From assembly GCF_044324875.1 (NCBI RefSeq), contig NZ_CP172185.1: a stretch of DNA of 64,000 nucleotides; one strand, given 5' to 3'. Origin of the DNA: Escherichia coli (lineage in GTDB: Bacteria > Pseudomonadota > Gammaproteobacteria > Enterobacterales > Enterobacteriaceae). Made by a program: the position numbers and the translations under genes. The stretch's first letter is position 1. The number at the start of each line of letters is the position of its first letter. The notes beneath the pieces are model-generated. The model searched no databases and was not told the origin of the DNA. It worked only from the letters and a program-made list of their open reading frames with translations. This document shows, one piece after another, positions 22,780 to 58,049 of the stretch.

Positions 22780-23090
22780 TCGTGTTTATGACCTGTTAAA
22801 ACTTCGCGAAGTGATAGGGCAGTATAAAGGGTACAGTGTGAAATTCCAGACTCTTACCTGATTGATGATTCTCTATTCTCCCGTGATATTTATCATCCTG
22901 CATTGGGGGAAATAGATGTACAAGCGCCATTTTGCTGTACAAATAACCTACAAAAAGCCCAACGAAATTAATTGCAAATAAACGAAGATTGCTGGAAATT
23001 ATGCTGATGTTAATTATTTGTGAAATAGTTAACAAGCGTTATAGTTTTTCTGTGGTAGCACAGAATAATGAAAAGTGTGTAAAGAAGGGT

Positions 23091-23183
23091 AAAAAAAACC
23101 GGATGCGAGGCATCCGGTTGAAATAGGGGTAAACAGACATTCAGAAATGAATGACGGTAATAAATAAAGTTAATGATGATAGC
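23091..23183 (-). ncRNA. micF: MicF antisense sRNA
   Basis: Reverse complement reads GCTATCATCATTAACTTTATTTATTACCGTCATTCATTTCTGAATGTCTGTTTACCCCTATTTCAACCGGATGCCTCGCATCCGGTTTTTTTT, ending in a hairpin plus T-run; divergent from ompC. Confidence 0.9.
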
Positions 23184-29319: not shown

Positions 29320-29524
29320 TATTTCGACGCTGACCTGGCGGACTGCTGCTGCCAGGTCAATATTCTAAAAATCCCTTCGTTTCTAATAACCCTATAATTA
29401 ATCAACGAAATTATAATGTTTCTAAAAATAGAATATAATTTATAAACATTATTTAAATGTTGTTACTTAAGTGTTACCGTTGATGCCGCGCAAATCTCAC
29501 CTGCAATAAAGCGACTAAAAGTAA

Positions 29525-54588: not shown

Positions 54589-55779
54589 GTGACCACCCGA
54601 CAGCATTCGTCGTTTGCTATTGTTTTTATCCTTGGCCTGCTGGCCATGTTGATGCCGCTGTCGATTGATATGTATCTGCCCGCGCTACCGGTAATTTCAG
54701 CGCAGTTTGGCGTACCGGCGGGCAGTACGCAGATGACCCTCAGTACTTATATTCTGGGCTTTGCGTTGGGGCAGTTAATCTACGGGCCGATGGCAGACAG
54801 TTTCGGGCGTAAGCCGGTGGTTCTTGGCGGTACGCTGGTGTTTGCCGCCGCCGCGGTGGCGTGTGCGCTGGCACAAACCATCGATCAGCTGATTGTGATG
54901 CGTTTCTTCCACGGTCTGGCTGCGGCTGCGGCCAGCGTGGTTATCAACGCTTTGATGCGTGATATCTACCCGAAAGAAGAGTTCTCGCGGATGATGTCGT
55001 TTGTCATGCTGGTGACGACCATTGCACCGCTGATGGCACCGATAGTTGGCGGCTGGGTGCTGGTGTGGCTGAGCTGGCATTACATCTTCTGGATCCTCGC
55101 TGTGGCGGCGATTCTGGCTTCGGCAATGATCTTCTTTCTGATCAAAGAAACCTTACCACCGGAGCGTCGCCAGCCTTTTCACATTCGTACTACTATTGGT
55201 AACTTTGCGGCGCTGTTCCGTCATAAGCGTGTCCTGAGTTATATGCTTGCCAGTGGTTTCAGCTTTGCCGGGATGTTCTCGTTCTTAAGCGCCGGACCGT
55301 TTGTCTACATTGAAATTAACCACGTCGCGCCGGAAAACTTTGGTTATTACTTTGCGCTAAACATTGTTTTCCTGTTCGTGATGACCATCTTTAACAGCCG
55401 CTTCGTCCGCCGAATTGGCGCGTTAAATATGTTCCGCTCGGGGTTGTGGATACAGTTTATTATGGCGGCGTGGATGGTCATCAGTGCGCTGCTGGGGCTG
55501 GGATTCTGGTCGCTGGTGGTTGGCGTTGCGGCGTTTGTGGGCTGCGTGTCGATGGTGTCATCCAATGCGATGGCGGTCATTCTGGATGAGTTTCCCCATA
55601 TGGCGGGAACGGCATCTTCGCTGGCAGGAACCTTCCGTTTCGGCATAGGGGCAATTGTTGGCGCATTGCTTTCTCTTGCGACCTTTAACTCTGCATGGCC
55701 GATGATTTGGTCAATTGCATTCTGCGCAACCAGCTCCATTCTCTTCTGTCTGTACGCCAGTCGGCCGAAAAAACGGTGA
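54589..55779 (+). CDS. bcr: MFS multidrug efflux transporter Bcr
   Basis: 396 aa, GTG start, 12-TM MFS architecture. Confidence 0.9.
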
Positions 55780-55793
55780 TCTATTGCACAACG

Positions 55794-55823
55794 AGGAAGC
55801 TAAAAGGCTTCCTTTGTTGATGC
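55794..55823 (+). terminator. Possible weak bcr terminator
   Basis: 7-bp stem aggaagc/gcttcct with T-rich but interrupted tail. Confidence 0.4.
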
Positions 55824-56111
55824 ATGTCAACCATAAATCCATCATTCCCCCGATATATGTTTATTTTATGTAAAATCAATTTATGTAAAAAGTCACATCA
55901 TTGTAGTTAAAAAGGTTGAGTTAGATCGCAGAAACGGGTACATATAGCCCCGCAAACGTGACCACGCCCGCAGATATTATTTAAATCAGAGCCATAGAGG
56001 CCACGCTGGCGAGGCATCAATCTTTACGATCTGTATAAAGACGGATTGTTGATGATGTGTTAAAATTGATGTAAACAAATTGTGAAGTAAATGTGCTTCC
56101 GGGGAAAATAA

Positions 56112-56456
56112 GTGACTTCATTACAACTCTCAATCGTCCATCGACTGCCGCAGAACTATCGCTGGTCTGCTGGTTTCGCAGGTTCGAAGGTTGAACCGAT
56201 TCCGCAAAATGGACCGTGCGGTGACAACAGCCTGGTGGCGCTTAAATTGCTTAGCCCGGATGGTGATAATGCATGGTCGGTGATGTACAAACTAAGCCAG
56301 GCGTTAAGCGACATCGAAGTTCCATGCTCGGTGCTGGAGTGTGAAGGTGAGCCGTGCCTGTTTGTAAATCGCCAGGACGAGTTTGCAGCAACATGCCGAT
56401 TGAAAAATTTTGGTGTGGCAATTGCCGAACCCTTTTCAAACTACAATCCTTTTTAA
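56112..56456 (+). CDS. yejG: Uncharacterised protein YejG
   Basis: 114-aa ORF in the conserved position between bcr and yejF. Confidence 0.8.
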
Positions 56457-56459
56457 GCG

Positions 56460-58049
56460 TCAGCTCAACGCCAGTAGCTGACGCGTATACTCCTGCTGCG
56501 GTGCGGCAAACACGCGCGCGCACGGTCCTTGTTCCACTACTTCCCCTTGTCGCAGTACGATAACCTGATGACATAACGCGCGGACAACGTGCAAATCGTG
56601 ACTGATAAACAAATAGGCCAATTGATGCTTCTGTTGCAATGATTTCAATAGCGTCAATATTTGCGCCTGTACCGTTTTGTCGAGCGATGATGTTGGTTCA
56701 TCAAGAATGATCAGCGAGGGCTTAAGAATTAACGCCCTGGCAATCGCAATACGTTGCCGCTGACCACCAGAGAACTCCGCCGGATAACGGTGGCGTGTTT
56801 CAGGATCTAATCCCACTTCATGCATCACGGCTATCACTTGTTGTTCGCGTTGTGCGGCAGAAAGCGTCGGCTGGTGAACCCGTAAGCCTTCCTCAATAAT
56901 TTGCAAAACGTTGAGTCGTGGGTTGAGCGAGGAGTTTGGATCCTGAAATACCACCTGAATGCGATGACGAATAGGTAACAGCTGGCGACGATTTAAATTT
57001 TGCAGTGGCTGACCGTCAAAGATAATGCTGCCCTGAGAGTTAATCAGTCGCAGCAGCGCCAGTCCCGTCGTGCTTTTCCCGGAACCGGACTCGCCCACTA
57101 AACCCAGTGTTTCACCCGCTCGTAGCGTAAAACTGATGTTTTTCACCACCACATTATGATCCACAATGCGCTTCAAAATCCCTTTGCGAATGGGGAAGGC
57201 AACCTGAAGCTGTTCAACATTCAGCAACGTTGAGGCAGGTTCTGGCAATGGCACCGGGTCGCCTGACGGTTCACTGTTGAGTAGCTTTTGTGTGTAAGGA
57301 TGAGTGGGTGAGGCAAATAGCGTAGCGGCGTTATTTTGCTCGACACAGCGACCGTTTTGCATTACCGCCACGCGGTGGGCCAGTTTTCTGACAATGCTGA
57401 GGTTATGAGTAATAAACAGCATGCCCATATTCAGCTCGCCTTGCAGTTCGCGCAACAGCTGTAAAATCTGCGCCTGGACAGAGACGTCCAGTGCGGTGGT
57501 TGGTTCATCGGCAATTAATAATTCCGGTCGCGTTAACAGCGCCATCGCAATCATCACCCGCTGGCGTTCGCCGCCGGAGAGCTGATGCGGATAATCTGTC
57601 AGCCGTTTTGCCGCCTGGCGGATACCGACGCGATCAAGGCAGTTAAGAATTTCGCCACGAGCCGCTTCCCGACGCATCCCGCGGTGGAGTGAAAGCACTT
57701 CATAAAGCTGTTTTTCCAGGGTATGCAATGGATTTAATGACACCATCGGCTCCTGAAAAATCATGGCGATCTTATTACCGCGTACACCGCGCAACGTTTG
57801 ATCGCTGGCATGAAGCAGCGATTCGCCATGAAAACGAATATCGCCGGAGAGATATTCAACCGGCGGGGAAGGGAGCAGGCGTAAAATTGACAGCGCGGTA
57901 ACGCTTTTGCCTGAACCTGACTCACCCACCAGCGCCAGCGTTTCGCCAGCCTCAATCTGAAGTGAAACATCATTGACTACTGTACGTACGGTTTGCTGAT
58001 GGCGAAAACCCACCGACAAATTTTCAATCGCTAACAGAGTTTGCGTCAT
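56460..58049 (-). CDS. yejF: ABC transporter ATPase with duplicated ATP-binding domains, YejF
   Basis: Start at [15 protein letters not shown] (529 aa); two Walker A motifs (GESGSGKS x2) and two signature motifs (LSGGERQR / FSGGQRQR). Confidence 0.93.

Follow-up and report, generated by a model that had tools for sequence, protein, structure and literature searches.

Multi-repeat ArcA operators lying over sigma-70 promoters have been described by Park et al. 2013 (PMC3798270), whose Table S4 has fumA and acnB among the further genes with four repeats. The spacer between bcr and yejG in Escherichia coli is like these operators in the 11- to 12-bp spacing of its repeats, in having three to four repeats rather than the minimal two, in the coverage of a -10 element and +1 by an array and in its repression under anaerobic fermentative growth. 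It departs from them in nothing essential: it has two arrays for two promoters, and the distal array lies upstream of its promoter and gives a weak ChIP signal. Two other described classes come close to parts of the spacer. An RNA from the yejG strand of the spacer resembles the 5' UTR-derived, Hfq-associated small RNAs of E. coli in that it has been reported, is enriched with Hfq and has P2 as its own, conserved promoter, and it differs from them in that neither a seed nor a fold is conserved, a clear terminator is lacking in E. coli and Rfam contains no family for it. The palindrome TTGATGCATGTCAA near the upstream end of the spacer resembles those predicted FNR sites that nucleoid proteins mask and keep silent (Myers et al. 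2013; PMC3688515) in its high score, the missing FNR peak and the enrichment of Fis, but it is conserved across genera, unlike a chance match.

We analyzed this spacer in a window of 64 kb, the term referring to the whole stretch of E. coli DNA under study. The spacer is very probably an oxygen-responsive control region of yejG in which ArcA acts on two promoters, P1 and P2, and the TGTAAA words that recur in it are ArcA half-sites. The ArcA sites, both promoters and the size of the repression have been known since 2013, though only in supplementary tables. An earlier note, made from the sequence of the window, had pointed to no described feature here; in fact, the promoters, the ArcA sites and a predicted FNR site have all been published. 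The analysis therefore carries little weight as a discovery, and its value lies in a clean explanation of the spacer.

Published ArcA sites and promoters upstream of yejG

The bcr-yejG spacer was found in 5,425 of 5,426 complete E. coli genomes with an identity of 95-100%, and the RefSeq annotation contains no feature inside it. Its G+C content is 38% as a whole and approximately 17-30% near the motifs. For comparison across genera, we used a set of 80 yejG loci, including those of Escherichia, Salmonella, Citrobacter, Klebsiella, Kluyvera, Kosakonia, Enterobacter, Leclercia and Mangrovibacter. The gene order bcr-yejG-yejF is found in nearly all of the 80 loci, and the length of the spacer is 289-402 bp, with a handful of exceptions. 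The conservation of individual segments was computed as the mean identity to the E. coli base over 23 genera and is listed, together with the coordinates of the features, in Table 1.

Table 1. Features of the bcr-yejG region in window coordinates, with segment conservation given as mean identity to the E. coli base over 23 genera
Feature	Position	Strand	Description	Identity
bcr	54589-55779	+
bcr-yejG spacer	55780-56111		332 bp, from the bcr stop to the yejG GTG start
bcr intrinsic terminator	55793-55819	+	stem GGAAGCU/GGCUUCC, loop AAAA, then UUUGUU
FNR-type palindrome TTGATGCATGTCAA	55818-55831		just after the bcr terminator; one mismatch to TTGAT-N4-ATCAA	0.76
Distal ArcA site, yejG2, ATGTTTATTTTATGTAAAATCAATTTATGTA	55857-55887	+	repeats TGTTTA (55858) and TGTAAA (55869); -95 to -65 relative to P2	0.90 (box)
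Third repeat of the distal ArcA site	55878-55883		weak; scored by Park et al.; core ATTTA
Motif copy 1	55866-55879		TGTAAA at 55869; second repeat of the distal ArcA site; nearly invariant
Motif copy 2	55881-55894		TGTAAA-type word at 55884; partly inside the distal ArcA site
Stretch AAAAAGTCACATCATTGTAGTTAAAAAGG	55888-55915		ends in an A-tract beside the P2 -35	0.82-0.93
Promoter P2	55916-55952	+	putative -35 TTGAGT (55916-21), 17-bp spacer, putative -10 TACATA (55939-44); start G 55952
P2 -35 with A-tract				0.93
P2 spacer				0.91
P2 -10 block			invariant	1.00
P2 leader	55953-56045	+	sequence-variable; reported source of a short Hfq-associated RNA
P2 leader, segment compared	55948-56035		least conserved part	0.39
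Proximal ArcA site, yejG1	56046-56089	+	repeats TGTTGA (56047), TGTTAA (56058), TGTAAA (56070) and TGTGAA (56081); -26 to +18 relative to P1	0.77
Promoter P1	56058-56072	+	putative extended -10 TGtTAAAAT (56058-66); start 56072 or 56073; no good -35
Motif copy 3	56067-56080		TGTAAA at 56070; third repeat of the proximal ArcA site, on the P1 start
Motif copy 4	56082-56095		GTAAA at 56087; partly inside the proximal ArcA site
yejG 5' UTR end	56084-56114	+	hairpin GAAGU/GCUUC (56084-56099), Shine-Dalgarno GGGG (56101-04), GTG (56112)
yejG	from 56112	+	GTG start; yejF convergent from the other side	codon positions 1, 2 and 3: 0.88, 0.93 and 0.56
rcsD and mqo ArcA boxes, published	23007-23024 and 29460-29477		two best ArcA-matrix matches of the window

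The two ArcA regions upstream of yejG were reported by Park et al. 2013 (PMC3798270) on the basis of ChIP-seq peaks and motif prediction. In their Tables S1-S4, the ChIP-seq peak values for the region yejG1 (2276282-2276325, TTGTTGATGATGTGTTAAAATTGATGTAAACAAATTGTGAAGTG) are 8.2 and 8.5, and its ArcA box reaches 18.8 bits, with 8.6, 9.7, 9.8 and 5.3 bits for the four repeats, while the ChIP peak of yejG2 (2276484-2276514) at 2276488 is weak (value 1.9) and the box reaches 17.6 bits, with three repeats of 8, 8.5 and 1.4 bits. The same study lists yejG among the directly repressed operons, derepressed without ArcA. In Salmonella, a study of ArcA found yejG altered in an arcA mutant and predicted the box GTCAATGATGTGTTA, which is the same as the proximal one of E. 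coli. Our literature search found no footprint or point mutation of these yejG ArcA sites. The published site sequences match the window save for a SNP at 56089, and the mapping from K-12 to window coordinates was thereby fixed. As a separate observation, the ArcA boxes of rcsD and mqo confirm that the window corresponds to the 2.27-2.33 Mb region of K-12 in reverse orientation.

To score the sites, we built an ArcA log-odds matrix from 114 published boxes, leaving out the yejG box, and applied it to the 64 kb on both strands. Within the spacer, the matrix gave 19.0 bits at 56046, 19.0 bits at 56069 and 17.8 bits at 55857, compared with a median of 15.9 bits for the training sites. The comparison with known transcription-factor matrices, which the earlier note had proposed, came out clearly, as these three are among the top five ArcA-matrix matches in the 64 kb; the remaining two are the sites already known at rcsD and mqo, whose boxes belonged to the training set of the matrix, and the sixth match reaches 14.7 bits. 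The hexamer TGTAAA ranks second among the second-repeat hexamers of the published ArcA boxes, being present in 15 of the 114, and is therefore a normal variant of the ArcA half-site. At yejG, the layout of an ArcA box, with at least two TGTTA-like direct repeats approximately 11 bp apart from centre to centre, is thus found together with a high box score. The suggestion that the words are binding sites for a regulator of yejG was right, the regulator being ArcA, with the sites and the 11.9-fold change in expression of Park et al.

The sites are also kept outside E. coli. An ArcA box of at least 10 bits is found at approximately -255 of the yejG start in 77 of the 80 loci, another at approximately -43 in all but four (13-21 bits, with 10.8 bits in one Mangrovibacter) and a third at approximately -66 in most of them. 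Cross-species conservation, another check proposed beforehand, accordingly speaks for the sites: the boxes hold their position in nearly all of the 80 loci, and motif copies 1 and 3 are nearly invariant. The separation of the two arrays is 189 bp in E. coli and varies from 172 to 200 bp in other genera, which makes it impossible to argue for looping from the helical phase. The retention of the ArcA boxes and both promoters across the Enterobacteriaceae speaks for selection on the oxygen control of YejG, an uncharacterised protein.

The promoters were located by Chung et al. 2013 (PMC3798280), who used paired-end ChIP-seq to separate two sigma-70 binding events in front of yejG, confirmed both by primer extension and listed the starts in aerobic growth at 2,276,299 (P1) and 2,276,419 (P2; Table 1 of that study). 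These lie 40 and 160 nt upstream of the yejG start codon. The elements given here for P1 and P2 are putative assignments made by us from the sequence. The P1 motif TGTGTTAA is conserved across genera; the P2 arrangement TTGAGT-17-TACATA lacks the final T, and consensus -35 and -10 hexamers at 16-18 bp are present at neither promoter. A scan for consensus promoters found neither P1 nor P2, and a simple terminator scan missed the bcr terminator; as the scan missed both mapped promoters and this terminator, it was not used as evidence. We also considered a sigma-32 promoter at P2, prompted by an RpoH SELEX peak (2276452, approximately 55919), and rejected it, the distance from TTGA to CAT being approximately 4 bp too long and the CCCC absent. 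The oxygen dependence of the region was recorded by Myers et al. 2013 (PMC3688515): sigma-70 occupancy is 1461.69 in aerobic cultures and 56.14 in anaerobic ones, and their table of operons that distinguish the two growth conditions gives yejG a value of 4.02.

The two starts, the ChIP signal of ArcA at the proximal site and, weakly, at the distal site, the loss of sigma-70 without oxygen and the derepression without ArcA are literature data, to which we add the matrix scores of the boxes and their conservation. A mechanism consistent with these data would run as follows. In air, P1 and P2 are both active as sigma-70 promoters. When the quinone pool becomes reduced, phosphorylated ArcA would bind the arrays of TGTTA-like direct repeats spaced approximately 11 bp apart. 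At P1, the proximal four-repeat array lies over the extended -10 and the start and most likely blocks RNA polymerase directly, an exclusion that we infer from the array covering -26 to +18. The distal array most likely helps to shut P2; it may cooperate with the proximal site, or it may disturb an activator or the contacts made upstream.

Alternative explanations of the repeated word

The earlier note had quoted four strings from the spacer as copies of a recurring TGTAAA motif, and all four are present where it had placed them. Their status differs, however. Copies 1 and 3 are conserved ArcA repeats, copy 3 being conserved as TGTAAA or TGTGAA. Copy 2 starts 15 bp after copy 1 and so does not keep the 11-bp phase; the TGT of this copy is missing from Klebsiella, Franconibacter and Siccibacter, while the AAAAAGTCAC after it is retained. 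Copy 4 has only GTAAA in common with the others, and even this was created by a SNP (A at 56089 here, G in K-12 MG1655) and is not conserved across genera. The observation of a recurring motif is confirmed in part.

The frequency of the word is a poor guide to its origin. ATGTAAA has three copies in the 332-bp spacer and six in the 64-kb window (both strands), and in dinucleotide shuffles of the spacer three copies have a P of about 5e-4, in a post hoc test of a named 7-mer. When any non-trivial 7-mer is allowed, three copies are reached in 180 of 3,000 shuffles (approximately 6%), and repetition alone is therefore only marginal evidence. With a spacer of 38% G+C and a fourth copy that exists only through a strain SNP, these shuffles are what speaks for the repeats being chance products of AT-rich intergenic DNA without any function. 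We regard that reading as scarcely credible. Copies 1 and 3 are nearly invariant over 23 genera, against 0.39 for the nearby leader, an independent ArcA matrix gives the boxes holding them 17.8-19.0 bits, and published ChIP and expression data link them to ArcA. The matrix scores and the conservation across genera show that the motif is non-random. Measured against the AT-rich background, as the earlier note had advised, the frequency is marginal, and it is the conservation, the matrix scores and the published binding data that refute chance for copies 1 and 3; for copy 4, chance stands.

The words could also be read as sites of other regulators. TGTAAA is the half-site of TyrR and GTAAA that of CpxR, and sites of TyrR (TGTAAA-N6-TTTACA), CpxR (GTAAA-N5-GTAAA) or CRP might account for them. 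The copies of TGTAAA are direct repeats, not inverted ones. Allowing at most three mismatches, the TyrR pattern has a single match in the spacer, with three mismatches and made of two direct repeats, and 26 matches in the window against 23.5 expected. The copies of GTAAA lie 15 and 16 bp apart, not the 10 bp of CpxR, and CpxR matches appear in the spacer only at two mismatches, which is the background level. With the wrong architecture and counts at the level of chance, both a TyrR box and a CpxR box at yejG were rejected. For CRP, a genomic SELEX screen places yejG among the predicted targets and a TCACA half-site is found at 55893-97, but the distance from TGTAA to TCACA is 4 bp and CRP requires 6 bp; a CRP site consisting of the right half only would centre near -62.5 of P2. 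Taken together, one of these three regulators is a very unlikely explanation for the words. In the 64 kb, the only CpxR-type match with zero mismatches is the perfect direct repeat GTAAAGAAGGGTAAA at 23079-23093, close to the ArcA box of rcsD in the rcsD/micF/ompC neighbourhood.

A further alternative places the words in RNA: P2 would mainly make a short Hfq-bound RNA, and the motif copies, as parts of a small RNA or leader, would act at the RNA level. The existence of such an RNA has some backing, as Raghavan 2011, in the form in which it is cited, reports a novel small RNA in the yejG-bcr spacer, and Bilusic 2014 found an Hfq-enriched interval named "5' UTR-yejG". P2 is also extremely conserved although yejG has its own promoter P1, and in many genera a run of GCGTTTTCTT, which could end a short transcript, lies approximately 35 nt before the proximal ArcA site. 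The role of the words is a different matter. Neither mapped promoter transcribes copies 1 and 2, which are located before the P2 start. The leader itself is the least conserved part of the spacer, its fold is no better than those of shuffled sequences (z +0.33), RNAalifold gave 0 pairs and no consensus structure over 32 genera, and a simple scan called no terminator in the E. coli leader. Single-sequence folds of the leader in 22 genera had mixed z-scores. The Rfam scan of 55300-56600, with E values up to 10, returned only two chance matches (a human lncRNA region and a CRISPR repeat), and the available portion of the 3'-end mapping supplements of Adams 2021 does not mention yejG. The P2 leader lacks the conserved sequence or fold of a small RNA body, and we consider it unlikely that the words belong to such an RNA. 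The suggestion of a small RNA or leader made by the earlier note is weakly supported: P2 has a 160-nt leader and an Hfq-enriched RNA has been reported, but the TGTAAA words act as sites in the DNA, P2 starts downstream of two of them, and the leader is conserved in neither sequence nor fold.

Conserved blocks and other elements of the spacer

While ArcA control of P1 and P2 explains the repeats, the conservation around P2 goes further. The 91-bp block 55857-55947 is conserved at the level of positions 1 and 2 of the yejG codons, and the stretch from -62 to -36 of P2 has an identity of 0.87. Over 23 genera, the identity is 0.87-1.00 in 55888-55947, a stretch that includes the 17-bp P2 spacer TAGATCGCAGAAACGGG and its GATC. 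In 55888-55915, we found only weak ArcA-matrix matches of approximately 5 bits, and no architecture of CRP, TyrR or CpxR fits. The conservation of the P2 spacer (0.91) and of the stretch from -62 to -36 exceeds what ArcA and sigma-70 obviously explain, the value for the promoter spacer being unusual. P2 might be under tight control by one or more further regulators, and its main product might be a fast-evolving, Hfq-associated short RNA and not just another yejG mRNA; we hold this combined reading to be doubtful, if somewhat less so than a role of the words in RNA.

The FNR-type palindrome is a second conserved element beside the ArcA sites. Many genera have a perfect TTGAT-N4-ATCAA at the same position (L005-L075), and the E. 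coli sequence is recognizable as an FNR palindrome. Myers et al. 2013 (PMC3688515) list a predicted FNR site with a score of 14.14 at 2276541 in their Table S6; the site was without an FNR ChIP-seq peak in K-12 grown in anaerobic glucose minimal medium and lies under Fis ChIP-seq enrichment. The conserved sequence suggests that the palindrome may be used under some condition or by another protein of the CRP/FNR family. Together with the extra conservation around P2, this silent but conserved box offers a modest lead for studies of yejG.

At the two ends of the spacer, RNA structures belong to the flanking genes. The fold of the bcr terminator (55775-55835) has an energy of -25.4 kcal/mol and a z-score of -4.49, with none of 200 shuffles being as good, and its stem varies on both sides between genera (GAAGC/GCTTC, GGGGC/GCCCC, GAGCG/CGCTC and GGCCC/GGGCC). 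The hairpin before the Shine-Dalgarno sequence of yejG is present in the centroid fold, with an energy no better than that of shuffles (z +0.26); its stem is invariant across genera and hence uninformative for or against a role of the RNA. The GTAAA of copy 4 covers the last pair of this stem (G87, U88) and the first bases of the loop.

Lineage-specific and neighbouring sequences

In some lineages, the spacer differs in length. The spacer of the Enterobacter asburiae group (L065, L067, L068, L069) and of L031 is shorter, 229-292 bp, and the deletion takes out most of the P2 leader; the box at approximately -66 is absent from these loci, and the distal box and the -43 box are retained. In Salmonella diarizonae/arizonae, an extra 45-60 bp is found right after the bcr stop (L006, approximately 2106-2165; L022, approximately 2122-2165), consisting of a GC-rich inverted repeat GTGTCCCTCA...TGAGGGAC that is absent from other genera. 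The locus of Citrobacter koseri NCTC10786 is odd in another way: Bcr was matched at residues 96-219 only, yejG follows after an apparent gap of 877 bp and the YejG match has only 51% identity, yet the upstream control region is intact. The oddity may reflect a gene disruption or an assembly problem.

Sequences resembling operators of the LacI/GalR type appear at one position of the leader. In Citrobacter (L012-L026, approximately 2400-2415), a near-perfect palindrome of this type, TGTAAACGTTTAC, lies approximately 35 nt before the proximal ArcA site, and Klebsiella, Enterobacter, Leclercia and others (L030, L042, L071, L073, approximately 2405-2420) have TGTAAGCGTTTTC, which is close to the published galR operator ATGTAAGCGTTTACCC. 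The E. coli equivalent at 56015-56028 is the degenerate CATCAATCTTTACG. The T-run at this position could also terminate a short transcript from P2. GalR was rejected as a regulator acting in the E. coli spacer, the GalR paper predicting its site only inside the coding region of yejG; this predicted operator falls at 56191-56206 of the window (GCGGAATCGGTTCAAC, minus strand). A Cra ChIP-exo study likewise reports a Cra site that is intragenic in yejG.
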